The notes below the pieces were generated by a model. The model was not told where the DNA came from and did not search any database. It worked only from the letters and a program-made list of their open reading frames with translations. This document shows positions 19,254 through 50,059 of a DNA stretch of 61,695 bases, in pieces. The stretch lies in the sequence record SRR31156797_3235; one strand, 5' to 3'. The translations under genes were made by a program, and so were the position numbers. Each line of letters begins with the position of its first letter. Position 1 is the first letter of the stretch.

Positions 19254-19261
19254 CCATGGGG

Positions 19262-29262: not shown

Positions 29263-29278
29263 CGGCGCAATAATTGCA
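29263..29278 (+). promoter_or_regulatory. Sigma-54 (-24/-12) promoter of the pilin genes
   Basis: CGGCGCAATAATTGCA: GG 29264-65, 10-nt spacer, GC 29276-77, with TTGCA -12 box. pilA genes are classically RpoN-dependent. Confidence 0.75.
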
Positions 29279-29336
29279 TAAATCTTCGACGAGCGTAAGT
29301 TTAAGGTCACTTATAACCCATGAAGGGTCTTTGCCA

Positions 29337-29696
29337 GTGGTAGAAAATTACCCAAAGGGTTTCACCCTGATTGAGTTGATGATTGTTATCGCCATCATCG
29401 GTATTTTGGCGACCATCGCCATCCCCCAGTTTGATGCTTACCGAAAACGGGGGTATAACTCGAGTGCAATCTGGGATATTAAAAACGCCGCTGCCGCTCA
29501 GGAGGCATACTATGTTGATTACCGGGCGTACGCGAACAGAAGAAACCTTTTAGACGGTTTCGGCCTCAGTTCCACCCAGGGTGTCACCCTGACGGTTGCC
29601 GGCAACAATGACGCATACACCCTTGTTTCGTACCACCAAAATGGAGATAGAACCTATACGCTCCAAGGGCCGGGAGGCTCTTTAGAAAGCAATTAG
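29337..29696 (+). CDS. Type IVa pilin (paralog 1)
   Basis: [26 protein letters not shown] prepilin cleavage/methylation motif. GTG 29337 after GAAGGG is preferred because TTG 29274 lies inside the sigma-54 promoter. Confidence 0.9.
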
Positions 29697-29817
29697 TTTT
29701 GGCTTATTATTAAAAAAACAAATTCTGATGATTTATTATGAAGTATGAAAGGGGGTGGGTTTTAAGAGGGCATTTGGATGAAACAAAATTGATTAAAAGG
29801 CAGAAAGGAGAAAAGAC

Positions 29818-30186
29818 ATGTTGTCAAAAATTAATGCAAAAAAAGATCAAAAGGGTTTTACTCTCATTGAATTGATGATCGTTATCGCCATCATCGGTAT
29901 TCTGGCGGCCATTGCCATTCCGCAGTTCAGTTCCTACAGGAAAAGGGCTTACAACGGGGCGGCACAAACGGACGTTAAAAATGGTTACACCTCCGCTCAG
30001 GCCTATTTCGTTGACAATCCGACCGGAACTCCCACCATAGGAAATTTGAATTCCTACGGCCTTACAACATCGTCGGGTGTTACAGTGACGACCAGTGGTG
30101 ATGCTGATGCCATTGCCGTGGTGGGTTACCATGGAAAAGGGGACAAAACCTACACGGTTTCCGGAGGCGGTATGACGAATAATTAG
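29818..30186 (+). CDS. pilA: Type IVa major pilin (paralog 2)
   Basis: Strong RBS AAAGGAGA; leader [13 protein letters not shown] then [28 protein letters not shown]; followed by a strong terminator. Confidence 0.9.
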
Positions 30187-32009
30187 TTAACATTTAACGG
30201 TTGGTTCCTTATGGGCGGGTCAGGGCTCGTTTGTGCCCCTGGCCCACCCTTTTTTTTGATCAAAGTCCCGAGCGCGGTCTTGATTTTTTTGTTCTTCGGA
30301 TCGTGTTTCAATGCATTTTTCAGGGAAATTTCCGCTGCATCCGTTTTTCCCTGAAGGAGATAAATAAAACCGATGTTTCCGTGCCCCCTCGGGTCTTCAG
30401 GGTTAAATGAAATGGCTTTTATGAAATCACTCTCGGCCTTTTCGTATTCTTCCAGCATGGCGTAACTTCTTCCGCGCAGGATATAGGCCGGGTAAAAATT
30501 TGGAAGAATGGTGACGCATCTGGTCAGGGCGTTGATCGCGCTCCGGTAGCTGCCGTTCTTAAAGTCCGACCTTCCGTCCATTTCATAATGGATTTTTGTT
30601 GCCTGCTGCCATCGGTCATGTTTATCAAGCGCCTCTTTAAACGTAAATTGAGTTGAAAGATAGAACACACCAAGAAATATGGCGCACATGCCGAAGCGTT
30701 TGAATTGATGTTTTTTTGCCATATTTTTCAATGCGCAGATCGCATATCCCGCAAAGAGGCAAAAATAGGGCACAGCAGGCGTGCGATATCTGGCATTGAC
30801 AAGGAAGATGGTGCAACTCAGCAGGTATACGCCGATGGCCCCATAAATTAGAAAAAGTCCTTTGAACTTTTTTAAAGAGAGTAATATCCCCAGAAACCCC
30901 AAAGAGATAATGATGCCATATCTAAGAAATGGGTGAGACAAGGATCTTTTGTATTCCTTGTGGGCGGAAGCAATATAGTGAACCTCATAGTCTGTAAAGA
31001 AGTGAACGAATTTTTTGAGTTCCCGGTTCAGATAGAGTTGTGGATTATCAAGAATATCTTTAAGCGTTATGTTGATCCAGAAACTGTTGGCCTGAGAAGG
31101 TGAGAGGGTTTCCCCGGCGATTTTTGAAGCTGTTTTCCGGAATACCACATGGGCGTAGTCCGGCTCGGAATTACTGTTCATATAAGGTGCGTTTTCAAAT
31201 AGATCTGCGCCGACGATGGCGGTTGCCGTTTTACTGTTGCCATGGAAGAAGACCTTGCCCGCATCCGCTGTTACCAGAACGAAATCGTGGAGCTTAAGGT
31301 AGTTTCTGAGTGTTACAGGGGCAATGGTGATGGCGGCTGCGCAGAGAAACAGCAGGGTATGCCATAGTTTTTTTTTGAATCCAAAAGTTGTTGTTCTGAA
31401 AAAGAGGATCCAGACTAGGGCAATCGGTAAAAACAACAGGAAATTTGGTTTTGTTATGATTCCCAGGCCTGTGAAAATGCCCGCTGCAAAAATGATTGAA
31501 ATGTCTTTACTTTGAGAGTTTGATTCGGTTTTGGAAAGGTTCAGAAAATAAACGGAGAGAAGGTTAAAGAACAATACGAAAACAGTGGGTTCAAGTGTTG
31601 TCTCTAAAATGATCAGGTTCCCGTAAAAGGCAAACATCAGGGCCGCTATAAAGGCGGCACCCTTTTGAAAAAGCCTGTTTCCGATAACGAACACCAAAAG
31701 GGTATTGAGTGCCCCAATAAAAACTTGGAAACACTTAATGAAGGCCCAGCTTACGCCAAAAAGCTTGTTTAAAAGTGTCAGGAAATAGAGATAGAAAGGG
31801 CTCAGGTCAACCAGTCTTTCACCAATGTCAATCCCCGCGGCGATTTTTTCGGCAAAAAAAGGGTATTTGAAAAAAAGAATCGGTTCATCAATAGAGATGA
31901 GGAAAAAAATGCGGATGCAAACGGCGACCAAAAAGAGAACGATGTGCAGGGTATAATCCTGTTGGGCTCCTTCCGGTTGAGAAAATAAGTTTTTCACGGG
32001 TATTTGCAC
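30183..32009 (-). CDS. GT-C (PMT_2/GT39-like) membrane glycosyltransferase with C-terminal TPRs
   Basis: GTG start after GAGG; about 11 [26 protein letters not shown] motifs; TPRs (AYILRGRSY...[13 protein letters not shown]). Confidence 0.8.
30213..30257 (+). terminator. Rho-independent terminator of the pilin transcript
   Basis: GGGCGGGTCAGGG ... CCCTGGCCCACCC stem followed by T8. Confidence 0.85.
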
Positions 32010-32042
32010 GCCTCTTTCAAATTCTAAAAATATTCTTCTATC

Positions 32043-34232
32043 TTATTTTAATGATGTTTTTGCAGGGAGGGATTGAAGACAGTCCTCAGCCAGGGTGCCG
32101 TACTCCCGGGACCTTTTTTGACAGGCGGCGCTCAGGAAACAAAGAAGTTCTTGCCGGTGTGCGCTGAATGCACTTTCCGATTCAGAGATGGTGCTCATGC
32201 TACCAATGAATTTCTTGAGGCGCACTGTGCTCCCATCAAAAAACAGAAAGAACTGATCCATGAAGGCTTCTTTTTTGGCGTCCATCCCTTTTTCACCATA
32301 TAGTTGTGCAATCTCCAGCAGCGTAAATGGGTCGTTCGGGTTGATTTCAATGGCGGTCTTGAATATAAATAAGGCATTCGCCGGTTGATTGTTGAGCCTG
32401 TGGGCAAGCCCTAACCGTCTCATTATATCGAGATTTTGAGGGGAGATTTCGAAGGCCGATTTGAGATACTCGATTGCCATATCGGTCTGTCCTCTTCGGA
32501 GTGATAGATGCCCCAGGTTCGTCAGGGTGGTTGGGCGGTGTTTTTTGTCGGTCAGTGCTTTGTGAAATTCTGCCAAAGCCTTTTCGTAAAGCCCTTTTTT
32601 TGCAAATAACTGGCCTTTTTTAATATGGGTCGGCGCGAAAGAAGGTTGGTATTTTTGTGCCTGTTCATAATAGAACATGGCTTCTTCGTCCTTTCCCAAT
32701 TCCTGGTATATGGACCCAAGATTATAATAAGTCCAGTTCTTTCCCGCCAGATTGTTCATGTTTTCCTTGGATAGCGAGATGAGGTATTCATTGATGGCGT
32801 TTTGATACAGGCTTTTTCGTGCGTAAAAGCGGCCAAGATTGTGGTGGGGCCGGGCAAGGTCGGGATATTTTTCAATGCAGTCAAATGATAGAATCCCATC
32901 ATTATTCCAGATTCTGTTCCGTGCGTATGTACTGTGACCCCAGCCTATGAGGATCAGAATCATGAATGTGACAAAGATCACCTGGAGTCCCCGTTTTTTG
33001 GAAAAAAATCGGATGCCATTTGACAGAAGAATAGACAGCGGAACAAAAAAGAGCATGGAGGGGAGATAGTTTCTATGCTCGAAGATAAGCTCAAGTGGGA
33101 AAATTGAAGATTCAATCAGATGGTTCATAAAGAAAAACAAAACGCAAAACGAGATGAGCGGCCTTTTCCCGGCGCATAAGAAGGCCAGGCACAGAATGAG
33201 GGCGATGGTGAGTATTGAAACAAGGGTGGAAACGGGGGTCAGAAATCCGGTGGAGAGCGCCATGCCGTGCTCAAGGCAGAGGCGATCCGGCATGGGATAT
33301 AATAAGAGGGAGATATAAAACAAGATGACACGCGGCTCTGTCAACAATCTTTCCCACAAGGTAAAGCCCCTGTTTTGATAACCGGAGATGAGGCTTTTTG
33401 GATTGAAAATTGACGGGCCCGCAAGGAGCAGGGCGAGAACGAGGCATGCAAGGACGGTCATCAAGAGGAAAAAGGAATATCTTTTTAAATTCTTTTTTGT
33501 TACCCCTTGTAATAGGAAGAGATCGTAAGTGAGGATCACCATGGGGAGCATAACCGCATTTTCCTTTGACCCCAGGGCCAGGATGCCACAACCCATGCAA
33601 AGCAAATAGTGTGTGCCGCGCAAAAGCTTTGGGGCTGATGTTCTCCCTTTGAGGTAAAAGTATATTGCCATAATGCAGAAAAGTCCGGCCATGGAGCTCA
33701 TTCGCTGAACCACATAGGTGACCGCCTGGGTTTGTACCGGATTGATAGCCCATAGTACTGCGGAGATAAGTGCGATAAAGTAAGCATTTGGCCCATATCT
33801 TGCTTTCAAAATTGGGAGATTCAGCGTGTGATAAAGAAAAAGAAAGAGAAAGATGGATGATAGAAAATGAATGATGAGGTTGATCAGGTGGTAGCCATAG
33901 ACCTCGGTTCCGCCAAAATAGTAATTGAGGGCAAAGCTGAGGCATGCAACAGGTCTGTACAGTTTTCCGCTTCCGTTCCAGTCCGCAAAAAAGGTCTTTT
34001 TGATGTTTTGAATATTTAATTGGGCCAGGTGAAGCGGTTTATTATTGAGGATGTTGTTTTCGTCGTCAAAATGCCATGAGGCGTCAAAAGTATTGGAATA
34101 GGTGATCAGTAAGAGGAGAAACAGTGAAACAACGGCGAAAATATTTCTCCTGCATTGGGTCAATGATGTTTCATTTGTCATATTCAAAAGGGCCATGGAC
34201 ATAATTTGGGTAAACGCTTTAAAGAATCTCAT
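32043..34232 (-). CDS. TMTC-like (GT105/DUF1736-type) protein O-glycosyltransferase with TPR array (start may be 34181)
   Basis: FDDENNILNN, LYRPV, YHLINLIIH, INPVQTQAVTYVVQR, SKENA, FEHRNYLPS, RNRIW, then multiple TPRs (HHNLG, YYNLG, LTNLG). Confidence 0.82.
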   Translation of the reverse strand: MRFFKAFTQIMSMALLNMTNETSLTQCRRNIFAVVSLFLLLLITYSNTFDASWHFDDENNILNNKPLHLAQLNIQNIKKTFFADWNGSGKLYRPVACLSFALNYYFGGTEVYGYHLINLIIHFLSSIFLFLFLYHTLNLPILKARYGPNAYFIALISAVLWAINPVQTQAVTYVVQRMSSMAGLFCIMAIYFYLKGRTSAPKLLRGTHYLLCMGCGILALGSKENAVMLPMVILTYDLFLLQGVTKKNLKRYSFFLLMTVLACLVLALLLAGPSIFNPKSLISGYQNRGFTLWERLLTEPRVILFYISLLLYPMPDRLCLEHGMALSTGFLTPVSTLVSILTIALILCLAFLCAGKRPLISFCVLFFFMNHLIESSIFPLELIFEHRNYLPSMLFFVPLSILLSNGIRFFSKKRGLQVIFVTFMILILIGWGHSTYARNRIWNNDGILSFDCIEKYPDLARPHHNLGRFYARKSLYQNAINEYLISLSKENMNNLAGKNWTYYNLGSIYQELGKDEEAMFYYEQAQKYQPSFAPTHIKKGQLFAKKGLYEKALAEFHKALTDKKHRPTTLTNLGHLSLRRGQTDMAIEYLKSAFEISPQNLDIMRRLGLAHRLNNQPANALFIFKTAIEINPNDPFTLLEIAQLYGEKGMDAKKEAFMDQFFLFFDGSTVRLKKFIGSMSTISESESAFSAHRQELLCFLSAACQKRSREYGTLAEDCLQSLPAKTSLK

Positions 34233-34398
34233 ACGTTATAAGGCCTTCATGGTCAAGTTTCATTAAATGGGAATCGCTTGATTGTCATTACCATGATTCT
34301 TTCCACGATGATAAGCTACCGGGTCGCCAACGCGGCGGTCATTATGTTTTCAACCATGTATGGACTTTTCGGCCAACAGGGAGAAAGGGTGATATCCG

Positions 34399-35349
34399 TT
34401 GAACTTTGACATCGTCGTTCCCATTTACAATGAAGCGGAAAACCTGCCCAAACTTCACTCCAGGCTCATAACTGCTTGTGAAAAACTGGAAGATATGGCG
34501 TGGCGGGTGATTTATGTCAATGATGGCAGTTCCGACAGGTCTCTTGAAATTATGCTTCGGCAGCGGGAGGCCGATTCAAGGTTTTCCATTGTGGAACTTT
34601 CACGCAATTTTGGCCATCAGGCCGCCATTACCGCCGGCTTATCCTATGCCGACGGCGACGCGGTAATCTTGATGGATGGAGACCTGCAGGATCCCCCGGA
34701 ACTGATCCCGGAATTAATTTCCCGATGGAAGGGCGGGGCGAAAGTGGTCAGGGCCCATCGTCGCAGCCGAAAAGAGAAAGGGCTGCGAAGGATCGGCTTC
34801 GACATGTTCCATAAATTGTTTGCCTGGATTACGGACTTTCCGGTTCCTCCCAACGCGGGCATTTTCGGACTCCTTGACCGACAGGCCGCGGAGGAATTGA
34901 AACGGCTGCCCGAACAGAATCGCTTTTTCCCAGGTCTCAGGAGTTGGGTCGGATTAAACCAGGAATTGATCTATTACCATCGGGACGACCGTGCGGGTGG
35001 TGAACCCAAACAGTCTTTGAAAAGACTGATCCGTTATGCCCTTGACGCGATTTTCAGCTTTTCCTACAAGCCCTTGAGGGTCATGACCGGCACGGGGGTC
35101 GTCATCAGTGCCATCGGTTTTCTGTTGGCCTGTTTTTTTATTGCAAGGCGGCTGCTCGGCATTGAAATTGCGCAAACGGGTTTTACCACCCTGGTCACAC
35201 TGATGCTCTTTTTAGGCGGCATTCAGCTCATGGCAATCGGTCTGTTGGGAGAATATCTGGCGCGAATCTATGATGAAGTGAAGCGAAGACCGCTTTTTAT
35301 CATCAAGAACACCCATGGCTTCCACAAAACCGGCAGTGAAAAGAGTTGA
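34399..35349 (+). CDS. GtrB/ArnC-like polyprenyl-phosphate glycosyltransferase (GT2 plus 2 TM)
   Basis: VPIYNE, VNDGSSD, LSRNFGHQAAITAGL, MDGDLQDPP, NRFFPGL, GLLGEYLARIYDEVKRRP. Confidence 0.9.
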   Translation: MNFDIVVPIYNEAENLPKLHSRLITACEKLEDMAWRVIYVNDGSSDRSLEIMLRQREADSRFSIVELSRNFGHQAAITAGLSYADGDAVILMDGDLQDPPELIPELISRWKGGAKVVRAHRRSRKEKGLRRIGFDMFHKLFAWITDFPVPPNAGIFGLLDRQAAEELKRLPEQNRFFPGLRSWVGLNQELIYYHRDDRAGGEPKQSLKRLIRYALDAIFSFSYKPLRVMTGTGVVISAIGFLLACFFIARRLLGIEIAQTGFTTLVTLMLFLGGIQLMAIGLLGEYLARIYDEVKRRPLFIIKNTHGFHKTGSEKS

Positions 35350-35353
35350 GCCC

Positions 35354-37399
35354 ATGAATGCCCGCGCCATGGAAAAATGCCTTCCCCTGTTGCTTCCCGC
35401 AGCCGTGTTCGGCGTCTACCTTTGCACCATGGCCCCCGTTGTATACGTGGGCGACAGCGGCGAATTCACGGCGGCCGCTTTCTCTCTGGGCATTCCCCAC
35501 AACAGCGGTTACCCCCTCTACTCCCTGATAGGGAAAATCTTCTGCATGATCCCCTTGGGCAACGTGGGGTTCAGAATGAACCTGATGTCGGCCTTCTTTG
35601 CAGCCCTTGCCGTCTTTCTGGTTTACGACGTCATCCGCCGGTTCACCCGTAATGCCCTGTGCGCCGTGACGGCCGCCGGGTTTCTGGCCTTTACCCCCCT
35701 TTTCTGGTCCCAGACCGTGTCCGCGGAAGTGTATCCGCTTCACATGTTTTTTTTGGCGCTCATGATCCGATTGCTGTGGCAGTGGGATCAAACAAAGGCT
35801 TTTCGCCGTCTTTTGATATTCGTTTTTGTTACGGGGCTCAGCTTCGGAAATCATATGCAGACGGTCATGTTGGCGCCGCCGGTTCTGTACTTCATTATTT
35901 CGGGGGATAAGAGGGCCATTTTCACTCTGAAGCATTTTGTGGCCATATCGGTCTTTTTCATACTTCCGCTTACCCTTTACCTCTATCTGCCCATGCGAAC
36001 GGAGGCGGGCGCCGCCATCCACTGGGGGGACCCGGACAATCTTGAACGTTTCCTGGCCCACGTCACCGCAACGGCTCACAGGGGCGCATACGTGTTCAGC
36101 GCCGGACCCTCGCAATACCTCTCCAGGCTTGCGGAGGCATTGAAAGTCCTGGGCCTTCAATACGGCATATTGACGCTGTTGTCCATATGGGGGTGGATAA
36201 GGATCACGTCCCTTCGCTGGAAAATATTTTTCGCGGGGGTTATCCTGTTCGATCTGTTTTACACGGTGTTTTTAAATATCATTTCCCTCGAAATTACGCC
36301 CTTTACCCTTCCATCTTCAATGGTATCGGCGATCCTCCTGGGCATGGGTTTGAACGACTTCCTGGGCTGGACCCGTCGCCGGAAAAAAATCGGGCCCAGC
36401 ATGAAAAAAGGCATTGTCGCGGCCTTTTGCATCATTCCCATTTTTGCTTTGGTCGTCCATTACGCCCTTTGCGACCAGAGCCGCAACTACACCGCCTATG
36501 ACCACGCCGTCAACATCTTCAGGACGGCGGAACATGGCGGCGCCATCTTTCTGGATGGGGACAACAACCTGTTTCCCGTGGCCTATGGACGGATCGTGGA
36601 GGGGATGGGAGAGGGGACGGCATTGTACGACCGGCACAATATCATCTTCAAATGGTCCCCGGAAGAGCATCGCTCCGATTTTGAGGGGACAGGCGAGGAT
36701 GCCAAATCGATCATGCGCCGGCATATTACCCGCGAAGGGGAAAAGGGAAGCGTCTATTTTGCCGTGTTCAACCCCTATGCGCTTCCAATTCCCATGGGTT
36801 TGCATCTAGTTCCATACGGGATCCTCCGGAAGCTGGTTCCGGATCAAGTCCCGGCTGGAACGGACCATGCCGCCGATGTCTGGGACCATTATTACACAAA
36901 GAGCTTCCATGATGATTTTGAGAGGGATTATATGTCCCGAGAGGTCTGTTCCTTCTTTTTTTTCAGAAAGGGCGAGAACCTGTGGCAGTCGGGACGTACC
37001 ACCGAAAGCCTGGAGCAATTAAGAATCGCCTCCCTGGTCGGCTACAATGATACGGCCATCCATTCGGAGATCGGGCTTTTTCTTACGGACAGAGGTTTTT
37101 TCCATGCGGCAAAAGCCGAGTTTGAAAAAGCGCTCCTTTACCATGATGATTTGAGCGGAATCCACAACAACTGGGGCTATTATTACCACAAAACAGGAGA
37201 TTATCAAAAGGCAGCGGCCTCTTTTAAAAAAGCAATCGCGTTGAGTCCGCACAACTATACTTATCACAATAATCTGGGGCTGATTTCCCATGAAGCCGGG
37301 AATAAAGAAGAAGCCCGGCTAAGCTTCAATAGATCACTTTCAATCAATAATGATCAGCCAAAGATAAAGGCGTACATGGAAACCCATGGGCTCCGGTAA
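35354..37399 (+). CDS. DUF2723/TMEM260-like protein O-glycosyltransferase with C-terminal TPRs
   Basis: GDSGEFTAAAFSLGIPHNSGYPLY, FRMNLMSA, FWSQTVSAEVY, GNH, YLYLPMR, WGDP, GDNNLFP; TPRs (HNNWG, HNNLG). Confidence 0.85.
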   Translation: MNARAMEKCLPLLLPAAVFGVYLCTMAPVVYVGDSGEFTAAAFSLGIPHNSGYPLYSLIGKIFCMIPLGNVGFRMNLMSAFFAALAVFLVYDVIRRFTRNALCAVTAAGFLAFTPLFWSQTVSAEVYPLHMFFLALMIRLLWQWDQTKAFRRLLIFVFVTGLSFGNHMQTVMLAPPVLYFIISGDKRAIFTLKHFVAISVFFILPLTLYLYLPMRTEAGAAIHWGDPDNLERFLAHVTATAHRGAYVFSAGPSQYLSRLAEALKVLGLQYGILTLLSIWGWIRITSLRWKIFFAGVILFDLFYTVFLNIISLEITPFTLPSSMVSAILLGMGLNDFLGWTRRRKKIGPSMKKGIVAAFCIIPIFALVVHYALCDQSRNYTAYDHAVNIFRTAEHGGAIFLDGDNNLFPVAYGRIVEGMGEGTALYDRHNIIFKWSPEEHRSDFEGTGEDAKSIMRRHITREGEKGSVYFAVFNPYALPIPMGLHLVPYGILRKLVPDQVPAGTDHAADVWDHYYTKSFHDDFERDYMSREVCSFFFFRKGENLWQSGRTTESLEQLRIASLVGYNDTAIHSEIGLFLTDRGFFHAAKAEFEKALLYHDDLSGIHNNWGYYYHKTGDYQKAAASFKKAIALSPHNYTYHNNLGLISHEAGNKEEARLSFNRSLSINNDQPKIKAYMETHGLR

Positions 37400-37477
37400 C
37401 CGGATGAAATAATAAAAAAAGCAACCATTGCAAATGGTAAATTCCGAATGCGGGGAACGCTTTGGAGAGACAAGCCG

Positions 37478-38230: not shown

Positions 38231-38242
38231 CCGCCGGCAAAT

Positions 38243-40561: not shown

Positions 40562-41910
40562 TGATCCTGGAATTTAAGCGGGTCAATATCCTTGGCTTGG
40601 AAATAGGAAACAGTTCCCCTGACGGCGTCTTAACCGGAAACGGTTGTCGGTTGCTTCTGATACTGCTGGGATTTACCGCAATCAATTATTTCTACAATGG
40701 CCTTTTCAGACCGTTATTCACCGATAAGATCGATTTTGAGGCCTACTATAACGCGGCTTTGGCGTTTAAATTCGGGGCTCCCTTGTATGATCTTATGATC
40801 GGATTTTTTGAAGTCGGGCCTGCAAAATATGAAGGCCCGCTTCCGTACGTATATCCCCCGCCATTCGCTGTTTTCTTGAGTCCTTTGGCAAATATGGGGT
40901 TTAAGGATGCCGTTCTGTTCTGGAACCTCGTTAACCAGATATTCTTCTTTTCCGGCCTGCTTTTGCTCATCAAGACCATTTCCCGGAAATATTCGTGGAT
41001 GGAACTGAGCGCCCTGATTTTTGTGTGCATGAATTTCAGACCTCTGTTCATTGATCATCTCTTGGGACAATGTAATATTCTCCTGTTTTTTTTAATGGTC
41101 CTAACCCTTTACTTCTATCGTTTACATAAAGATGTTTATGCGGGGATTTCTCTGGCAACGGCCTGCATCATCAAGGTTATCCCATTTTTTCTTTTGGCAT
41201 ATTTCTTATGGAAGCGTCGGTATAGGGTGTTTGCGGCAGGCGTATTAACGCTGTTACTCATTTTCGTCTATTCTTTGTTATTTTTCGATATGGATCTCTA
41301 TGTTTGGTATTTTAAATTCATGTCAAACCAGACCCTGTTTGACGCGTTTCATGACAATCACGCTCTCACTGGCTTTTTTACCCGGCTGCTGGCCCATACC
41401 ATTTGGACCCAGGGCATTCTGGACAGCCCGATGGCTGCCAAAGTTATGATTGCACTGAGTTCTCTGTCGATCATTGCCGTATTTTTCATCATAACCCGCA
41501 AGAGATGTGAGCCCGAGGATGATCGTACGCTTCACGAATACGGCCTTGCCATCATTACGATGCTTCTGCTGAGCAAGATGACCTCCACCCCCTATCTGGT
41601 CATGTTGTTGCCGCCACTCGGAATTTGGGTGCATGAACTGTTTAAATATGGGGTGAATAACAAGTGGATGCTTTTATCCGCCGCTGCTTACGGAATCGTG
41701 GCAATCTGGTATCCTTTGGCAGCAGGCAAGTTCCTCCATATGGATGCATACAAGATCATTCTGAAAGGCTTCTGGGTGAATGTCTTTTCAATCCAGTTTT
41801 TTGCCTTGGTAGTGTTTTGGTGGTATTTTGCATTTGGGCCTTCAGGTTCAGAGACGTCGGATATTCTGGAATGTGAATATGGGAAAGAGCCCGGACTCGA
41901 AATGGATTAA
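40561..41910 (+). CDS. GT87 (DUF2029, PimE-like) GT-C glycosyltransferase
   Basis: IDFEAYY, YVYPP, LGQCN, AGISLATACIIK motifs; multi-TM. Confidence 0.82.
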   Translation: MILEFKRVNILGLEIGNSSPDGVLTGNGCRLLLILLGFTAINYFYNGLFRPLFTDKIDFEAYYNAALAFKFGAPLYDLMIGFFEVGPAKYEGPLPYVYPPPFAVFLSPLANMGFKDAVLFWNLVNQIFFFSGLLLLIKTISRKYSWMELSALIFVCMNFRPLFIDHLLGQCNILLFFLMVLTLYFYRLHKDVYAGISLATACIIKVIPFFLLAYFLWKRRYRVFAAGVLTLLLIFVYSLLFFDMDLYVWYFKFMSNQTLFDAFHDNHALTGFFTRLLAHTIWTQGILDSPMAAKVMIALSSLSIIAVFFIITRKRCEPEDDRTLHEYGLAIITMLLLSKMTSTPYLVMLLPPLGIWVHELFKYGVNNKWMLLSAAAYGIVAIWYPLAAGKFLHMDAYKIILKGFWVNVFSIQFFALVVFWWYFAFGPSGSETSDILECEYGKEPGLEMD

Positions 41911-42617
41911 TGGAATTATCAGTGATCATACCGGCATACAACGAACAAGACCGATTGCCGCACACATTGGGGCGGATGGTGAGGTTTTTCAGGAAAAATC
42001 GGACTTCATTTGAAATCATTGTGGTTAATGATGGGTCAACAGACAATTCAAAAGCAATCCTTATGGAATATGGGGAAAGATATAAAGAAATAATTTTAGT
42101 TGATTATCCCAAAAACAGGGGCAAAGGCTACGCCGTGAGCAGGGGGGTGTCGAAAGGGATTGGAGACCTTTTCCTTTTTTCGGATGCGGACCTTTCAACT
42201 CCCATAGAAGAGTATGGAAAACTCCTTCCATTCATCAAATCGGGGTATGATGTGGTTATCGGGTCGCGGAGAATAAAGGGCGCCGACATCAAGATCAGAC
42301 AACCCGTTCACAGGAGGATCCTGGGAAGAGGCTTCGGCGTGCTGACCCAAATTTTTTTCCTCCGGGGCATCAAGGACTCCCAATGCGGGTTCAAGCTTTT
42401 CAAAAGCGGCGTGGCCAAAAAAGCCTTTGAAAGGCGAAAAGTGGACGGCTTCAGCTTTGACGTGGAAGTGCTGTATATTGCCAGGAAAATGCTGCGGGCG
42501 CGAATCAGGGAGGTGCCCGTTGAATGGTCTGACAGCGCCAAGCTTTCGAAAGTGAAGGCCGGCAGGGACACATTCCGGATGTTGAAAGATATTTTGAGAA
42601 TAAAGCGGCTGCATTGA
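41910..42617 (+). CDS. Dolichyl/polyprenyl-phosphate beta-glucosyltransferase-like GT2 (ALG5-like)
   Basis: IIPAYNE, VNDGSTD, NRGKGYAV, FSDADLSTP, IGSR, DSQCGFKLF, FSFDVEVL, EVPVEW. Confidence 0.88.
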   Translation: MELSVIIPAYNEQDRLPHTLGRMVRFFRKNRTSFEIIVVNDGSTDNSKAILMEYGERYKEIILVDYPKNRGKGYAVSRGVSKGIGDLFLFSDADLSTPIEEYGKLLPFIKSGYDVVIGSRRIKGADIKIRQPVHRRILGRGFGVLTQIFFLRGIKDSQCGFKLFKSGVAKKAFERRKVDGFSFDVEVLYIARKMLRARIREVPVEWSDSAKLSKVKAGRDTFRMLKDILRIKRLH

Positions 42618-42618
42618 C

Positions 42619-43395
42619 ATGTCTTTAAAAGAATTGGCGCCCACCTATTTTACCCGGCTGGCTACGGTGATCGGAGAGACCGGCCCACAGAAAAGGATCC
42701 TCAACGCAGGATGCGGGGATGGTGTATATGATCTCTATCTCAAAAACAAAACATCGGAAATCGTTTCCATCGACATTAACCGGAGCGACGTCCAAATCGC
42801 CAGAAATTTGAATTTTGAAAAAAATCTCCTGTACTGCGTGGCAGATATCGGGACCATGCCTTTTGCCGAGGGTATGTTTGATTGCGTTATCTGCGTGGAT
42901 GTGATCGAACACCTGGCCGACGACATGGGAGCGATTCGTGAAATGTGCCGGTGTCTCAAGAAAGGCGGAAAACTCATCGTCACCGCACCCTCCAGAAATT
43001 TCCCCCTGTTTTACGACCCTGTAAACTATGTGCTCAATAAATTCGGAAAAAAATTGCCCATCGGCATTTGGGGATGGGGGCATGAACGGTTGTATACGAT
43101 ACGGGAAATCGAGAGAAAAACAGGTCTCAAGCTGATAAGAACAGAATATCTCTCCAAGTCCCTGGTCGGGTTTCTGGAGAACGGCTACGTGAACAGCCTG
43201 CTCCAGAAATTCACCAAGAGCGATCCCGGCAATCAAGCGCGCATGGGCCGGCATGTGAACAGGACGGCCAAAACGGTCAAGTATGAAATACCCGCTGCTC
43301 TTTCTTTGATTCGGGATGCGGTCATAGGTCTTGACAGGACGCTTTGCCGCACGTCTACAAAAAGCGTCGGCATTATGGCCGTGTTCAGGAAATGA
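42619..43395 (+). CDS. Class I SAM-dependent methyltransferase
   Basis: ILNAGCGDG, FD..ICVDVIEH, LKKGG, GHERLY. Confidence 0.85.
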   Translation: MSLKELAPTYFTRLATVIGETGPQKRILNAGCGDGVYDLYLKNKTSEIVSIDINRSDVQIARNLNFEKNLLYCVADIGTMPFAEGMFDCVICVDVIEHLADDMGAIREMCRCLKKGGKLIVTAPSRNFPLFYDPVNYVLNKFGKKLPIGIWGWGHERLYTIREIERKTGLKLIRTEYLSKSLVGFLENGYVNSLLQKFTKSDPGNQARMGRHVNRTAKTVKYEIPAALSLIRDAVIGLDRTLCRTSTKSVGIMAVFRK

Positions 43396-43398
43396 AAT

Positions 43399-44361
43399 CT
43401 ATGCTTTCCTGGAAGCAACCATGACAAACGTTCCGTTCCGGCCCAACAATGCCTCAACAGGGAGGGCGGCGCCGGAAGCCGGGGTAAGGACGGCGCCGAG
43501 GATGAGATTTGATGTCTTGGCCCACGCGGAATGTTCTTTTCCCTTTCCCGTCAGAAAATCGAGAAAGATGTTAGGGGTAGGATTCAGATAATTCATGGCG
43601 CTTTGGGCCCATCCCATAAAATTGTATTCGGTTTCCCGGCATCTGGAACGGCAAACGCGAAATCCCGCCTTTTCGAGGCACCGGCGTAATGAACCCGGGT
43701 CGAAGTGGTACAGATGGCGCGGAACATCCAGCGGAAGCCATCGGGATCCGAACAGTTTTGCCTGTAGACTGTTGTTGTTGGGGACGGCAATGATCAAATG
43801 ACCCTTTGGGGCGAGCAGCCCTGCAATTAAATTCAGGGTTGATTTTATGTCTTTCATATGTTCCAGGCTGTGCCACATGGTAACGCCCTCAAAGCGTTCG
43901 GCTCCATCTATATGATCGAGGGTATGCCTTATGTCAAGACCGAAAGCCCGCGCCGGGTGTGGATTGATTTCCGTGCCCATGACGTTCCATCCCGCCCCTT
44001 TTGCCTCGAGCAGGAACGAACCGTCGCCGCACCCGATGTCAAGCAATCGCTTTTCAATTGTGTTACCCGCGAGACCTTCGAGAAAGCGGAGGCGTCGCCT
44101 TATACAAAACCTTGCGGTGATGCCGTGGCGGCCGCCATAATAGTACCTGCCGTAATATCGGTTTAAATCGTCCGGTTGGGGGTGGGTATGGCCAAGACCG
44201 CATTTTGTACATGCCAGAATGCTGAATGATTCGTTTGTTATGGGGTCGCAAACCCTGCTGAAACGGGGAGTCAACGTACCGCTACATACGTTGCAGGATC
44301 GGCGTGCCGGATTTTTCTTTAAAGGCTTGTCCTGCATTTCAAACTTATGGCCGGGTATCAT
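43399..44361 (-). CDS. Class I SAM-dependent methyltransferase with N-terminal Zn-ribbon
   Basis: CNVC...CTKCGL, LLDIGCGDG, WHSLEH, AVPN, LDVPRHLYHF. Confidence 0.88.
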   Translation of the reverse strand: MIPGHKFEMQDKPLKKNPARRSCNVCSGTLTPRFSRVCDPITNESFSILACTKCGLGHTHPQPDDLNRYYGRYYYGGRHGITARFCIRRRLRFLEGLAGNTIEKRLLDIGCGDGSFLLEAKGAGWNVMGTEINPHPARAFGLDIRHTLDHIDGAERFEGVTMWHSLEHMKDIKSTLNLIAGLLAPKGHLIIAVPNNNSLQAKLFGSRWLPLDVPRHLYHFDPGSLRRCLEKAGFRVCRSRCRETEYNFMGWAQSAMNYLNPTPNIFLDFLTGKGKEHSAWAKTSNLILGAVLTPASGAALPVEALLGRNGTFVMVASRKA

Positions 44362-45125
44362 TCGACAGTATCCTTGTCCGGTCTAGGGAATATTTTCGGG
44401 GTGATGATTTTCATCTTGGCCATACGAAAGAGAAACGCGGTGGAGAGGCATCCCAGTCCGTACTTCACGCTTCTGGAAAAATCAATTGAGGATGCTTCGG
44501 CAAAATAGTTGGTTGGGCAGCTGATTTCAGCCACCGTATATCCCATCCAGACCACCTGCGTCAGCATCTGATTGTCAAACACAAAATCATTTGAATTTTT
44601 TTCTATGGGAAGTTTTTTAAGCAGTTCACGGGAAAAAGCCCGGTAGCCGGTATGGTATTCGGACAGTTTGGCTCCGATGAGGATGTTTTCCACAAAGGTG
44701 AGAAAACGGTTGGCCGCATATTTCCAGAGGGGCATGCCGCCATTTAATGCATAACCGCCCAGGATTCTGGATCCCAAAACACAGTGATACAGGCCGTTTC
44801 CGATCATTGAAGCCATTGCGGGAATCAATTTCGGCGTATACTGATAGTCGGGATGAACCATGATGATAATGTCGGCTTCGGTTTTCAGGATGATGCTGTA
44901 GCATGACTTCTGGTTGCCTCCGTACCCTAGATTTTTGGAATGGGCATGAACGATGGTTTTGGGCAGCTGTTGCGCGATATCAACCGTATCGTCCCGGCTT
45001 GCGTCGTCAACGATGACGACCAGGTCAACAATCCCCTGGTCCATTACTTCACCATAGGTTTTCTCCAGTGTCTTCGCCGCATTGTACGCGGGCATGGCCA
45101 CAACAACTTTCTTATCCTTGTACAC
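44358..45125 (-). CDS. DPM1-like polyprenyl-phosphate glycosyltransferase (GT2)
   Basis: MPAYNA, VDDASRD, NLGYGGNQK, HPDYQY, GSR, LSEYHTGYRA, FVFD; GTG start at 45125 after GAGAGG. Confidence 0.88.
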   Translation of the reverse strand: MYKDKKVVVAMPAYNAAKTLEKTYGEVMDQGIVDLVVIVDDASRDDTVDIAQQLPKTIVHAHSKNLGYGGNQKSCYSIILKTEADIIIMVHPDYQYTPKLIPAMASMIGNGLYHCVLGSRILGGYALNGGMPLWKYAANRFLTFVENILIGAKLSEYHTGYRAFSRELLKKLPIEKNSNDFVFDNQMLTQVVWMGYTVAEISCPTNYFAEASSIDFSRSVKYGLGCLSTAFLFRMAKMKIITPKIFPRPDKDTVE

Positions 45126-45133
45126 AACGCCTC

Positions 45134-47071
45134 TCAAGATGCCGGTGAATTTTCCAATTCCGCGAAACGGTACAAAAAATATCGCCTTTTGTCGCTTTTG
45201 ACAAGCGTAAGATATCGGTTTTGGAATGTCAGAAACAGTTTCTTGTTCTCTTCTGTAAATGTGCCGGCATTGCCGAACACATAGTGGATATCATACAGGA
45301 TATGGGTAAATCCCTTCCTTTTAAGGGCGAGGCGGACATCCTCGGGGGTTTTTGAGCTGTTCAGTATGGTTTCGATGGTATGGGATTCGAACATGGAATC
45401 GGAATAAAAGGGGCGGTTGAAAAGATATGCGAGGTTTTTCATGTAAATCGTAAATATATACGAACTTTCAGGCAGTTTGGTATTCACATATCTGAGCATT
45501 GCATAGGAGGGGACGATTCGGGTCAAAAAGAGATTTTTGTCCTCATGGCCCGTGAGAACGCCCAAAGGGCGTATTTTCCTGAAATCATTTATGATATGAT
45601 AGCCGTTAAAGGCAAGTCCCCACGCAATGAAGATGGAAAGCAAGGTGAAGATTATCGTGTTGTTGCGATAATGGGAAAATGTAAGGCCGGTTGCCATGGC
45701 AAGAAATGGGAAAAGGGGTATGAGATATCGCATTTGTTGGGCGGAGGAGGCCCAGAAAAAAAATGCCAAAAGGCAATAGATTAATAATATCTTAATTTCA
45801 ATGGAGATTTTTCGCATACCGATGGCAAACGGCAGTACCAGAATAAAAACAGGACCCATTAATCCGTCGAAAAGGGGACTGTCCAATTGAGATCGGAAGC
45901 TCAGATTCCAAGGCAAGAGGATATAGTCCAGCAGTTCGCGGCCCATCCCTAAATTTTTTATGAAAACGTCGTAATATCCCGCCTGTTCCGCGCTCCAACC
46001 CTTTCCTCCGAATATTTGATAAAAGAAAGGGTACAGCGGATTGCCGGTCACGATCCAATTTTTCAAATAAAAGGGTGCGCCCGCCACGAACATGAACAAG
46101 ACATAAAGAGAGAGCAAACGGATCGCTTTGCGGGTCGGGATATCATTTTTTCTGCATGCCCACAAAACGCCGAGAATTCCGATAAACGGAAAAGAGAGGG
46201 CGCCGTATTTGATGGACATGGCAATGCCGCAGAAGATCGCGCAAAGGATAAGCCACAGGGTTCGTTTTGTGTTGAACCAGGTTATAAAGGCATATAAAGC
46301 CATAAAGGTAAAAAATGCCAGAATGAGGTCGCAGTTGGCCACATGGGCGTTTATGAAAACGGAAGGGATGGTGAAAAAGATGAGAAGGGGCAATAGTGGA
46401 AAATTGTTTTCATGAACGTATCGCTTGCCGAATTTCCACATGCCGAAAAGGACAAAAACGGCCATGGCAAAATGGATCCCTTTGGGCAGTATTTCCCCCC
46501 AAAGAGCGAGTGCCAAGATGTAGAGCATCTCGCCGAAAAAAGGATAAGAGGCAAAAATATTGCCGGAAATGAAATAGATTCCATGATGCGCCAAAAACAT
46601 CTTTGGAACGCCGATATGATAGATTAAAGCGTCTTTGCCTATTTCCGGCGTCAGAACCAGCATCAAACAGGCCAACAGGGCCATTGCCAGGGCCATGAGA
46701 CAGCAGCGGTTTACAACTGCGGGGAACGCTCCTTTGGAGACTCGATTTTCAAGAGGTTCGCTTTCCCCCAATAAAGGCGGTCTTACCCGAGCCTTTCGGG
46801 TCAAGTGCCATCCCGCAAGCGCCAGAATTGCACAGGTGCCGGTAAACCCATGGATGACGGCGGGATACAACGCCTGGCAGATGCCGAGGATGAATACGCA
46901 ATAGCCGATAACGGCAAAACCCACGGCTGCGGAAAACAAGATTGATTCTCCGGAATCAATCTCTTTCATGGGGGTCCTAACCAGCGCCAACTTGCCCACG
47001 CCGGATGCAATGAAACAGACAACGGCAATCCAAAAAATATTTCCCCCATGTTGCATCAATGCCGCGGCCAT
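45134..47071 (-). CDS. GT-C (GT39/PMT_2-like) membrane glycosyltransferase
   Basis: Multi-TM; DALIYHIGVPK, YP, KY, PFYLKNWIVTGNPLYPF, QQMRYLIP. Confidence 0.75.
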   Translation of the reverse strand: MAAALMQHGGNIFWIAVVCFIASGVGKLALVRTPMKEIDSGESILFSAAVGFAVIGYCVFILGICQALYPAVIHGFTGTCAILALAGWHLTRKARVRPPLLGESEPLENRVSKGAFPAVVNRCCLMALAMALLACLMLVLTPEIGKDALIYHIGVPKMFLAHHGIYFISGNIFASYPFFGEMLYILALALWGEILPKGIHFAMAVFVLFGMWKFGKRYVHENNFPLLPLLIFFTIPSVFINAHVANCDLILAFFTFMALYAFITWFNTKRTLWLILCAIFCGIAMSIKYGALSFPFIGILGVLWACRKNDIPTRKAIRLLSLYVLFMFVAGAPFYLKNWIVTGNPLYPFFYQIFGGKGWSAEQAGYYDVFIKNLGMGRELLDYILLPWNLSFRSQLDSPLFDGLMGPVFILVLPFAIGMRKISIEIKILLIYCLLAFFFWASSAQQMRYLIPLFPFLAMATGLTFSHYRNNTIIFTLLSIFIAWGLAFNGYHIINDFRKIRPLGVLTGHEDKNLFLTRIVPSYAMLRYVNTKLPESSYIFTIYMKNLAYLFNRPFYSDSMFESHTIETILNSSKTPEDVRLALKRKGFTHILYDIHYVFGNAGTFTEENKKLFLTFQNRYLTLVKSDKRRYFLYRFAELENSPAS

Positions 47072-47153
47072 CTCTCATTCATCCTGTTCTGCGGGTGTTT
47101 CCTGCGGAAACGGATGCTCCCACGGGTTGTTTACTTAATTCAGATGGGGTGTT

Positions 47154-47900
47154 ATGGTTAATCATGAATGGCCGGCCTTCTCCAAGAAGCCGATGATCAA
47201 TATGGCTACAGCTTTGAAACGCATGACTCAATTGTTAATCCGCCTATGGAATCGCAGAAACCTCAGGGCTATACTTGTAGGTCTTGCCTTGATTATCCTC
47301 CTCCTGGTTATGGTATGGGCAAGGGTTTTTTATGGTTCAATGGAAACGTACCGGGAGGGTGAAACCCATTTTAGGGCAAATCAATACATCAAAGCAATTA
47401 CATTTTTTGACCGTTCATTACACTGGTACGCCCCCTTTAACCCCTATATTCGCAAGTCAGCCGAGCGTTTGTGGGAGATCAGCAAGGAAGCACGGAAAAG
47501 GGGGGATATCCCCCTGGCATTGATTGCCACAAGGACAATCAGGAGGGGATTTGTCGCTGCAAGGAGCTTTTACGCCCCGGGCGGGGATTGGATTGGAAAA
47601 TGCGACCAAAGAATTTCAGCGCTCTTAAGGATTGAACAGGGCGGGAAAGGCAATCCAAAAGAGGGAGGAACAGCGGAAGGTGCTGTTGTAAACCACCCGC
47701 GGACAAAAGGCCCGGATATCTTTTGGAGCATCATATTGCTTGTCGGTCTCCTGGGATGGATCGCATCCGCCATCGGTTTGATCATTTCAGGGTTCCGAAC
47801 TTCCAAACCTTCGGGGTTGTTAAGCCCACCCAATTTCAAGTGGATGCTGCTCTGGGCTCTCTTTTTCGCAATCTGGATTTTTGGGATGATGAAGGCATAG
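47154..47900 (+). CDS. Hypothetical membrane protein with a single TPR-like element (start uncertain)
   Basis: N-terminal TM, YREGETHF...AITFFDRSLHWYAP helix pair, two C-terminal TMs. Confidence 0.6.
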   Translation: MVNHEWPAFSKKPMINMATALKRMTQLLIRLWNRRNLRAILVGLALIILLLVMVWARVFYGSMETYREGETHFRANQYIKAITFFDRSLHWYAPFNPYIRKSAERLWEISKEARKRGDIPLALIATRTIRRGFVAARSFYAPGGDWIGKCDQRISALLRIEQGGKGNPKEGGTAEGAVVNHPRTKGPDIFWSIILLVGLLGWIASAIGLIISGFRTSKPSGLLSPPNFKWMLLWALFFAIWIFGMMKA

Positions 47901-48006
47901 CACGTCCTTTTCCCTTAAGCCCGTTCCGGACGGAAGAAATGGAAGAGGCCCTTGCAAGAACCGACAAAATAATCGATACTTTTACATTTTAGAGAGCGGG
48001 TGGTCC

Positions 48007-48891
48007 ATGGAGAAAGTCAAGGAATCTGATATCTCAGTCATCATCCCGGCGTACAATGAAGCCCATAATATCGGCAAGATGGTCTCCCGGATTCTGGCGC
48101 TTCATCCCGATTTTGAAATCATTGTCATTGATGACGGTTCCACGGACGGCACCGGAGACATCGCCGGAGAGGCGGGAGCGATCGTCTACAAGCATCCCTA
48201 CAATATCGGCAACGGCGCCGCCATCAAAAGCGGTGTTCGGATTGCCTCGGGTCGGGTTCTGGTATTTATGGATGCCGATGGTCAGCACGACCCTGCGGAT
48301 CTGGGTCAGCTGATTCAGCATTTTCCGGAATTCGATATGGTGGTGGGTGCCAGACCCGGAGGGGCACAGGATTCAAGGATTCGGGCATTGGGCAACCGGA
48401 TTTACAATCGCCTGGCCTCCTATGTGACGAATTTTCGGGTCCGGGATTTAACGTCCGGTTTCAGGGCCGTAAAATCGGATCTGGCACGAAACCTGCTTTA
48501 CCTCTTGCCCAATACCTATTCCTACCCCACAACCCTCACATTGGGGACGCTCAGGTCCGGGAAAAGCGTCAAATATGTTAAAATCAGAGTTCAGCCACGG
48601 AAAACGGGAAAAAGCGAAATTCGGATCATAAAAGACGGCGTGCGATTTTTCATGATTATTATCAGGATCTGCACCTTTTATTCGCCCCTGAAGATTTTTC
48701 TGCCCATCAGCATTTGTCTTTTTCTGACAGGTCTTGCCTATTATGCTTATACTTTTTTTACATCCGGGCGATTTACCAACATGAGCGCACTTCTCTTCAC
48801 CACTTCCATCCTCATCTTCATGCTGGGCCTGATTTCCGAGCAGATCAGCCAGATGCGCTTTGAAAAAAGTGAAGGGGACCGGTTTGTTTGA
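48007..48891 (+). CDS. DPM-like polyprenyl-phosphate glycosyltransferase (GT2 plus 2 TM)
   Basis: IIPAYNE, IDDGSTD, NIGNGAAIKSG, MDADGQHDP, VVGAR, DLTSGFRA, GLISEQI. Confidence 0.88.
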   Translation: MEKVKESDISVIIPAYNEAHNIGKMVSRILALHPDFEIIVIDDGSTDGTGDIAGEAGAIVYKHPYNIGNGAAIKSGVRIASGRVLVFMDADGQHDPADLGQLIQHFPEFDMVVGARPGGAQDSRIRALGNRIYNRLASYVTNFRVRDLTSGFRAVKSDLARNLLYLLPNTYSYPTTLTLGTLRSGKSVKYVKIRVQPRKTGKSEIRIIKDGVRFFMIIIRICTFYSPLKIFLPISICLFLTGLAYYAYTFFTSGRFTNMSALLFTTSILIFMLGLISEQISQMRFEKSEGDRFV

Positions 48892-50053: not shown

Positions 50054-50059
50054 GATTTA

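Follow-up and report, generated by a model that had tools for sequence, protein, structure and literature searches.

We analysed a 61,695-nucleotide stretch of DNA from sequence record SRR31156797_3235 (hereafter the window), which comes from an uncultured bacterium; its closest relatives in public data are metagenome-assembled genomes of the Desulfobacterota type. The segment between 29.2 and 48.9 kb encodes two short type IV pilins together with six GT-C-type enzymes, four family 2 glycosyltransferases (GT2s) and three methyltransferases (Table 1), and our main subject is GTC-B, a membrane enzyme ending in TPR repeats, and its relation to the pilin genes. Gene calls rest on the list of open reading frames (ORFs) combined with Pfam and NCBIfam profile searches. 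Every gene named in an earlier note on this DNA, which had proposed a pilin-linked O-glycosylation system, was found where it had been placed or within a few codons; the minus-strand orientation of GTC-A and GTC-B and the three S-adenosylmethionine (SAM) methyltransferases are additions to its gene list, which otherwise stands. GTC-A and GTC-B converge on the plus-strand pilins, in the order pilins, GTC-A, GTC-B, and the stop codons of GTC-A and pilin 2 share a 4-nt overlap. Divergent from GTC-B runs a plus-strand operon comprising the GT2 at 34399, GTC-C, methyltransferase 1, the YfhO-like gene, GT87, GT2b and methyltransferase 2. It is followed by a minus-strand operon of GTC-D, GT2c and SAM methyltransferase 3, and the cluster ends with a membrane protein of no assigned family and the fourth GT2. 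The sequencing runs listed as carrying this DNA include none of RNA, and the one that carries it in full is a DNA run, possibly its source.

Table 1 Features of the pilin and GT-C cluster, with positions in the window
Feature	Position	Strand	Basis
Sigma-54-like promoter candidate	29263..29278	+	2 mismatches to consensus, GG-N10-GC core intact
Type IV prepilin 1	29337..29696	+	N_methyl E 6.8e-10; ORF 29274-29696, start revised
Type IV prepilin 2	29818..30186	+	N_methyl E 4.5e-12
GTC-A, PMT_2-type GT-C with C-terminal TPR	30183..32009	-	PMT_2 E 1e-11, PMT E 6.8e-6, TPR_1 E 2.9e-15
GTC-B, TfpW-like GT-C with C-terminal TPR	32043..34232	-	TPR in Pfam; GT-C by modelled fold
GT2, GtrB/ArnC/PgfS type	34399..35349	+	Glycos_transf_2 E 2.7e-27; PgfS E 2.4e-77; ArnC-type E 1.4e-54
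GTC-C, TMEM260 homologue with C-terminal TPR	35315..37399, alternative start 35354	+	PF11028 E 2.1e-35
SAM methyltransferase 1	37448..38230	+	Methyltransf_11 E 1.2e-17; syntenic in L139-L141
YfhO-like GT-C membrane protein	38243..40561	+	YfhO E 1e-11; PgfM1 model E 4.1e-7
GT87-family GT-C (polyprenyl-phosphate-mannose-type mannosyltransferase family)	40561..41910	+	GT87 E 1.5e-27; PRK13375 mannosyltransferase E 1.2e-9
GT2b, short, without membrane tail	41910..42617	+	Glycos_transf_2 E 9.8e-31; weak ArnC and dolichyl-phosphate hexose transferase matches
SAM methyltransferase 2	42619..43395	+	Methyltransf_11 E 4.8e-21
SAM methyltransferase 3	43399..44361	-	Methyltransf_23 E 1.6e-27
GT2c, Dpm1/AglJ-like	44358..45137	-	Glycos_transf_2 E 4.9e-20; AglJ model E 2.3e-16
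GTC-D, PMT_2-like, without TPR	45134..47071	-	PMT_2 E 7.7e-6; LIC_10190 family E 2.7e-12
Membrane protein, family unassigned	47154..47900	+	no Pfam/NCBIfam match; hydrophobic stretches at both ends
GT2d, Dpm1/AglJ/PpgS-like, predicted polyprenyl-phosphate-sugar synthase	48007..48891	+	Glycos_transf_2 E 2.7e-33; AglJ E 1.3e-34; PpgS E 2.8e-26

The gene arrangement is not a matter of chance: it is syntenic in three independent metagenome contigs (L139, L140 and L141, ~76% protein identity), which keep the two pilins, GTC-A, GTC-B, the PgfS-like GT2, GTC-C, the methyltransferase, YfhO and GT87. L139 and L140 retain GTC-A in its place, with GTC-B on one side and the pilins on the other; L140 and L141 keep further downstream cluster genes, and L140 also has the DUF255 gene that lies beyond the pilins. 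In a relative at 60% identity, GTC-B stands directly beside two pilins and GTC-A is absent there, and in L138 the GTC-B gene is directly adjacent to a pilin.

GTC-B consists of a membrane domain of approximately residues 1-460 (32853-34232, minus strand) and a TPR region of approximately residues 460-670, which matches TPR families at E 1e-24 to 1e-9. The membrane domain gave no Pfam match even at E<=5 and no NCBIfam model, and its best E-value against the PDB, in single-sequence and family-profile searches, was about 1. Folding of the membrane domain alone with 37 homologues in AlphaFold2 produced a model with a predicted local distance difference test score (pLDDT) of 88.7 and a predicted template modelling score (pTM) of 0.89. 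When this model was compared by VIA-align, 20 GT-C enzymes were returned at Z 19.1-9.9, with unrelated proteins next at Z 4.9; AglB (Z 19.1), ArnT (18.8) and Pmt1/2 (18.6) came at the top, and ALG12, Pmt4, STT3, PglB and AftA were among the further matches, down to PimE (9.9). Foldseek likewise placed ArnT first, with weak E-values, while a search with the whole of GTC-B returned TPR proteins only, such that the membrane domain had to be used alone for the fold to be seen. On the strength of this model, the membrane domain of GTC-B is a GT-C fold. D56, D57 and 37 other residues are invariant across the 37 homologues (36-61% identity), and the two aspartates form a DD loop between transmembrane helices (TM) 1 and 2. 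A predicted N-in/C-out topology of 11 TM would place the invariant residues in periplasmic loops, the K/R clusters in the cytoplasm and the TPR region in the periplasm.

The family to which GTC-B belongs is large, with 48,383 representative clusters at E<=1e-3 and 2,993 matches among 8,000 scored candidates. The earlier note had called GTC-B TMTC-like, a label that found no profile support: DUF1736 (PF08409), PMT and PMT_2 matched 0 of 37 relatives at E<=1, and because no Pfam family matched, the term is unproven and describes a resemblance, not membership. JGI names some close homologues 'protein O-mannosyl-transferase', and one Atlas neighbour cluster of GTC-B, in which 25% of the members carry DUF1736, has a score of 0.91 and rank 30. 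Metazoan TMTC1-4 (GT105) are described as cadherin O-mannosyltransferases with an 11-TM GT-C domain, a C-terminal TPR region and a strictly conserved DD in EL1 (PMC7801869). In our own reading of GTC-B against the seven conserved motifs M1-M7 (Eisenhaber et al. 2021), M1 (DD) is present, M2 is partial (YRP in EL1), the K and E of M4 are found in EL3, and an M7-like E-x-R-x-Y loop precedes TM10 with different spacing, whereas M3 (RxD), M5 (DW) and M6 (PxxP) were not found. Profile searches and hhalign place the three TPR-bearing GT-Cs of the cluster in three separate families.

To characterize the genomic surroundings of GTC-B relatives, we drew on 629 matched genome-contig stretches, of which 627 encode such a relative, and kept 77 loci. 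Prepilin-like ORFs were called by regular expression, and Pfam N_methyl confirmed 14 of 15 and 11 of 11 of these calls. Such an ORF is present in 60 of the 77 loci, lies within 2.5 kb of the GTC-B homologue in 57 and within 600 bp in 52 (upstream and co-oriented in 30, downstream and convergent in 21, otherwise placed in 1). Where at least 700 bp are available on both sides, 43 of 55 loci have an adjacent pilin. The density of prepilin genes reaches 6.57 per 10 kb beside GTC-B, compared to 0.14 per 10 kb at a distance of 6-10.5 kb, a difference of ~47-fold. Ten long loci show the gene order rpoA-rplQ-pyrB-pyrC-pilR-pilA-GTC-B or pilB-pilC-pilR-pilA-GTC-B, which marks a major-pilin locus, and behind the pilA-GTC-B pair there often come a further GT-C with TPR repeats, a PMT-like GT-C, a methyltransferase and a GT2. 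In line with the earlier note, GT2s of lipid-sugar-synthase type accompany the pair in part of the loci: where both flanks extend for at least 5 kb (36 loci), 15 have such a GT2 at a distance of up to 5 kb, and 15 have a further PMT-like GT-C. Relatives of GT2c, GT2d and GTC-D occur in 16, 17 and 27 of the 77 loci, respectively (for GTC-D, at a median distance of 1.3 kb). The pilA-GTC-B pair is also found in cultured Desulfonema magnum (L057), where the two genes converge and a GT2 lies 1 kb away.

We further placed 135 members of the GTC-B family in a FastTree phylogeny, whose support values are SH-like only. Pilin adjacency holds for 64 of 92 testable rows in the main clade and is rarer in the outer clade (4 of 15 testable), and the adjacency label changes 19 times on the tree, compared to a shuffled mean of 24.6. 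Of the 39 non-adjacent rows, we read 16 as second copies arranged in tandem with a pilin-adjacent copy of the same locus, both cable-bacterium loci included. In the latter, Ca. Electrothrix laxa (L027) and Ca. Electronema sp. (L051), two GTC-B-family genes in tandem come after a pilin gene, at positions ~7.3-12.0 kb of the locus. Four loci (L004, L008, L031 and L038) have typical pilA-GTC-B content under bin labels such as Eubacteriales, archaeon, Pirellulales and Pseudomonadota; these may be mis-binned or transferred, since they are nested among Desulfobacterota rows in the tree.

A described counterpart of this pairing exists in Pseudomonas aeruginosa group IV strains, in which TfpW acts as a pilin D-arabinofuranosyl transferase (10.1101/2020.04.19.049825; PMC11841053). 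TfpW is reported as a 646-aa GT-C of 11 TM helices that carries a DDx loop and ends in a large periplasmic TPR domain, its gene lying directly downstream of pilA (10.1101/2020.04.19.049825), and the comparison with it drawn in the earlier note is apt. Set against the published description, GTC-B shares the GT-C fold, the DD motif in periplasmic loop 1, the C-terminal TPR and the pilA neighbourhood; both systems would also draw on lipid-phosphate-sugar donors from separate genes, with stepwise rather than en-bloc transfer. Given the GT-C fold, the DD loop, the TPR region and the conserved pilA-adjacent position, GTC-B is probably a pilin glycosyltransferase of the TfpW kind, predicted by analogy with the Pseudomonas enzyme to O-glycosylate the adjacent pilins in the periplasm from polyprenyl-phosphate-sugar donors. 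The principle of pilin glycosylation by a TPR GT-C is thus already known from TfpW. The two systems differ in several respects. The TfpW homologues listed in print all come from gamma- and beta-proteobacteria (10.1101/2020.04.19.049825), whereas the GTC-B loci belong to Desulfobacterota-type genomes. No D-arabinofuranose (DprE-type) pathway genes were seen in the window, where the donors resemble GT2 products of the hexose type. GTC-B is also joined there by three methyltransferases and another five GT-C enzymes. In open-access papers and bioRxiv we found no description of TPR GT-Cs at Desulfobacterota pilA loci.

GTC-C is, by sequence, a true bacterial homologue of TMEM260, as the earlier note had suggested. 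It matches PF11028 (GT117) with 122.6 bits against a cut-off of 24.2 and, over its residues 29-448, aligns with residues 34-473 of human TMEM260 (chain 9rql_A, E 3.9e-36). D47, H62 and D416 of GTC-C align to D52, H67 and D441 of TMEM260, while P329 aligns to R355, and TMEM260 R264/Y267 align to A252/H255, with an RxxY 4 residues downstream in a gapped loop. The human enzyme is described as a protein O-mannosyltransferase for IPT domains (PDB 9rql; 10.64898/2026.03.17.711096; PMC10214176), and GTC-C shares with it the Asp of the GDSGE loop, the His, the catalytic base of the Rossmann-like domain and the TPR end. Unlike TMEM260, GTC-C is bacterial and would work in the periplasm instead of the endoplasmic reticulum, its donor lipid would be undecaprenyl rather than dolichyl, and it has no IPT-domain receptors to act on. 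The TPR region of TMEM260 is reported to be necessary and sufficient for acceptor recruitment and to clasp an extended, unfolded strand (10.64898/2026.03.17.711096), which disagrees with the earlier suggestion that the TPRs recognise folded substrates. The published account mentions bacterial relatives only as 'distant homologs in bacteria' and assigns them no function (PMC10214176), and our search of open-access papers and bioRxiv found no description of what bacterial TMEM260 homologues do.

In an even sample of the phylum comprising 301 genomes, GTC-C-like genes occur in 40, and a prepilin lies directly upstream in 10 of 30 TMEM260-like loci. All 10 pilin-adjacent enzymes match PF11028, 7 have a TPR at E<=1e-8, 4 have a sigma-54 activator upstream and 5 a GT2 downstream; they are the weaker matches to GTC-C. 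Five genomes have the pilA-GTC-B pair without a TMEM260-like gene. The closest relatives of GTC-C adjoin proteins of the LPG_synthase_TM type and, in the four that we looked at, have no detectable TPR. At L082:1-4322, a TPR-less TMEM260-like gene lies between a PilB-type ATPase (T2SSE and MshEN domain) and an LPG_synthase_TM gene, an arrangement that is possibly another link of the TMEM260-like family with pilus systems. LPG_synthase_TM proteins, which resemble the MprF flippase domain, recur beside GTC-B-like or TMEM260-like genes (L003:4541-5431, L028:14653-15555, L063:9007-9969, L079:3261-4271 and L082:3312-4322). They are candidates for lipid-sugar flippases; none was found in the window cluster.

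The third TPR-bearing enzyme, GTC-A, scores 45.8 bits against PMT_2 (cut-off 26.1) and 26.3 bits against PMT (cut-off 22.7). The MIR domain, which eukaryotic and actinobacterial PMTs (GT39) have in their large luminal loop, is absent from its 13 Pfam matches at E<=0.01, and its C-terminus carries TPR repeats instead. GTC-A-like genes occur in 24 of the 301 genomes.

Both pilins share a G|FTLIELM cleavage site. The likely true start of pilin 1 is the GTG at 29337, which gives an 8-residue leader and a mature chain of 111 aa with 15 Ser/Thr and no Cys. Pilin 2 has a 13-residue leader and a mature chain of 109 aa with 22 Ser/Thr and no Cys; the length and Ser/Thr count reported earlier for this chain were reproduced. 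In an alignment of 53 GT-C-adjacent pilins, which fall into three pilin sequence types, the column of Ser72 of mature pilin 2 holds Ser or Thr in 44, which makes this residue the best-conserved candidate for a glycan acceptor. A sigma-54-like site lies ~60 nt before GTG 29337, and pilA in relatives comes after a sigma-54 activator gene. With up to 3 mismatches, the sigma-54 pattern is not enriched in the window (249 found, 268 expected), and we treat the site as a lead only. Terminator and sigma-70 scans around the pilins returned nothing exceeding shuffled expectation. Just upstream of the two Cys-free pilins, 26885-28981 (minus strand) encodes a thioredoxin-domain protein of the DUF255 type, which also gave a weak match of the six-hairpin epimerase kind. 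In L014 (12089-13255), L028 (12006-13169) and L039 (12190-13365), a VKOR-DsbA fusion gene follows the GTC-B homologue and the adjacent pilins carry two Cys; this association suggests a pilin-maturation cassette joining disulfide formation with glycosylation in those loci.

The proposed route would begin at the cytoplasmic face, where GtrB/Dpm1-like GT2s would load single sugars onto undecaprenyl phosphate. The lipid-sugars would then flip to the periplasm, where the TPR region of GTC-B would hold the membrane-anchored pilin before assembly, and Ser/Thr residues of the pilin, with Ser72 of pilin 2 as a candidate, would be glycosylated at the membrane-proximal GT-C active site. The glycan would be extended, or other sites or proteins modified, by the YfhO-like protein, GT87, GTC-D and perhaps also GTC-C and GTC-A, and methylation of the sugars would fall to the methyltransferases. 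Judging from TfpW, the cell would probably gain pili that are masked from pilus-specific phages or changed in surface chemistry; published work reports that TfpO and TfpW glycosylate pilins and protect against pilus phages (PMC11841053).

The donor side of this route is predicted with less resolution than the earlier note assumed. Its four polyprenyl-phosphate sugar synthases were recovered at the level of the GT2 family, but no match reached equivalog level: the scores fall below the NCBIfam equivalog cut-offs for PgfS (260 of 500 bits), ArnC-type (185 of 529) and AglJ (120 of 325). The window GT2s are therefore predicted polyprenyl-phosphate-sugar synthases only at family level, the GT2 at 34399 being the best case. 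Among the accompanying membrane enzymes, the GT87 protein scores 97.3 bits (cut-off 25) and covers model positions 1-236 of 237. The YfhO-like protein scores 44.4 bits (cut-off 28.5) over residues 678-746 of its 772, which correspond to positions 766-835 of the 835 in the model, and the PMT_2 score of GTC-D, 26.6 bits, is barely above the cut-off of 26.1.

Several observations weigh against pilin glycosylation by GTC-B and its neighbours. It is gene position alone that designates the pilin as the acceptor of GTC-B, and in the window itself a distance of 1.8 kb, taken up by GTC-A, separates GTC-B from the pilins, which are encoded on the other strand and have no pilR upstream. In the even phylum sample, the GTC-B family occurs in 100 of 301 genomes, often in several copies (up to 5 or more matches per genome), and a prepilin lies within 1.5 kb on either side in only 8 of 30 best-per-genome loci; with several paralogues per genome, a large part of the family must act on other acceptors or serve another purpose. 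The survey of relatives for pilA linkage agrees with the earlier note in the 77 GTC-B loci and falls short of it in the even sample. Similarly, the linkage of TPR GT-Cs with pilins holds for the GTC-B family and for the TPR-bearing TMEM260-like branch, but not for GTC-A or for the relatives nearest to GTC-C in the phylum sample (0 of 12 pilin-adjacent). A prepilin adjoins just 1 of 30 GTC-A-like loci, which served as a negative control and argues against a pilin specificity of GTC-A by ancestry. GT2 donor genes within 5 kb are limited to the 15 of 36 long loci given above, and no lipid-sugar flippase was identified among the cluster genes. Alignment of the GTC-B family to GTC-A and GTC-C by hhalign gave a probability of <1%, and the window holds many other glycan genes (Wzy_C, Wzx, GT4s and heptose genes), such that the GT-Cs could serve a polysaccharide.

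These points bear on three other explanations. The TPR GT-Cs may form a general system for periplasmic protein O-glycosylation, each serving a class of exported proteins, with pilins as at most one client. The presence of three unrelated TPR-bearing GT-Cs in one cluster, the huge GTC-B family with its multiple copies per genome and the low pilin adjacency in the even sample all fit this, as do published accounts of TMEM260 and the TMTCs as domain-specific enzymes with several clients (10.64898/2026.03.17.711096; PMC10214176) and of streptococcal Pgf (PgfS with the YfhO-like PgfM1/M2), which acts on several surface proteins. We nevertheless regard a general system as unlikely: no gene is a stronger or more specific neighbour of the GTC-B subfamily found in the window than that of the major pilin (52 of 77 loci), and between 26 kb and 49 kb no Ser/Thr-rich exported protein was seen besides the pilins.

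The GT-Cs might instead decorate a lipid-linked or polymerised glycan (lipopolysaccharide, capsule, exopolysaccharide or glycolipid) in the manner of ArnT, GtrC-type enzymes or GT136 three-component systems, with the pilins merely co-located. ArnT is among the best structural matches of GTC-B by both VIA-align and Foldseek, and Wzy_C, Wzx, GT4, GT10 and heptose genes make the window a large glycan island. Lipoglycan and teichoic-acid pathways are known to include members of the GT87 and YfhO families. Periplasmic O-antigen glycosylation by a three-component system needs, as described, only a GT2, a flippase and a GT-C (PMC11127046). This explanation is hard to reconcile with the pilR-pilA adjacency, which holds where the flanks are housekeeping genes (rpoA, rplQ, pyrB and pyrC) and not polysaccharide genes, with the C-terminal TPR, which binds protein in TMEM260 and is also reported for TfpW, and with the GTC-A control, by which GT-C genes are in general not near pilins; we judge it quite improbable. 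That GTC-B-type proteins are pilus-biogenesis accessories, i.e. chaperones or pilotin-like TPR proteins on a GT-C-derived anchor, and not active glycosyltransferases, is very improbable. Their TPR parts do score against the PilW, PilF and Tgl models, far below cut-off, and a non-enzymatic protein, TfpY, is described downstream of pilA in Pseudomonas (PMC11841053). The invariant DD loop and the other invariant periplasmic-loop and membrane-core residues in 37 homologues, in contrast, fit an active site, and GT2, methyltransferase and further GT-C genes co-occur with the pilA-GTC-B pair.

If GTC-B glycosylates pilins as TfpW does, a family of 48,383 clusters that has no Pfam model would gain a testable function, and the pilin would be the first candidate substrate for bacterial TMEM260 homologues. 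For Desulfonema magnum and the cable bacteria, a role of pilins as adhesins and possibly as electron conduits is under discussion; glycans coating their pili would alter surface chemistry, phage susceptibility and the interpretation of pilus preparations. The bacterial system would also be a tractable model for how the TPR domains of GT-Cs select protein acceptors. A more far-reaching version, which we consider doubtful, is that the six GT-Cs and four lipid-monosaccharide synthases build a multi-sugar, methylated O-glycan on the major pilins of this lineage stepwise and wholly within the periplasm, with three unrelated TPR initiators (TfpW/TMTC-like, TMEM260-like and PMT_2-like) each having its own pilin site, and that pilin glycosylation is the ancestral job of families which animals reused as the domain-specific O-mannosyltransferases TMEM260 and TMTC.

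Beyond TfpW, TMEM260 and the TMTCs, parts of the cluster resemble the Pgf machinery of Streptococcus mutans (PgfS, PgfM1, PgfE and PgfM2), which is described as modifying several surface proteins (PMC5856776; 10.1101/2022.10.10.511621). Both combine a GtrB-like GT2 with YfhO-type GT-Cs; PgfS is the best NCBIfam match of the GT2 at 34399, and the YfhO-like protein weakly matches PgfM1/M2. Pgf differs, as published, in being Gram-positive, without a pilin and without TPR enzymes, and the window scores are all below the equivalog cut-offs. The en-bloc enzymes TfpO/PilO, PglL, PglS and TfpM are reported to belong to the Wzy_C family and to transfer a preassembled, undecaprenyl-pyrophosphate-linked oligosaccharide (PMC9829042; PMC11841053). 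They share the target, the major pilin, and TfpO also the gene position downstream of pilA, whereas their fold differs from GT-C. The window has one Wzy_C gene (17874-19253), 10 kb from the pilins, whose product could be WaaL (an O-antigen ligase) or an en-bloc O-oligosaccharyltransferase of the PglL type. Synechococcus Ogt was considered as a precedent and rejected, as it is a cytoplasmic GT41 and not a GT-C.

Outside the cluster, the Wzy_C gene belongs to a glycan sub-cluster at 15303-21852, which consists of a PMT/PMT_2 GT-C (15303-17222, minus strand), a GT2, Wzy_C, a GT2, a GT10 fucosyltransferase-like gene and a GT2-like gene. On the other side, 48989-61076 encodes two GT4s, two GT2s, another GT4, a methyltransferase, a radical SAM/SPASM enzyme and a Wzx-type flippase. 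The same segment holds SIS, GHMP-kinase and nucleotidyltransferase genes of the kind used in heptose-type sugar activation, and a PMT_2-like GT-C at 59679-61076.

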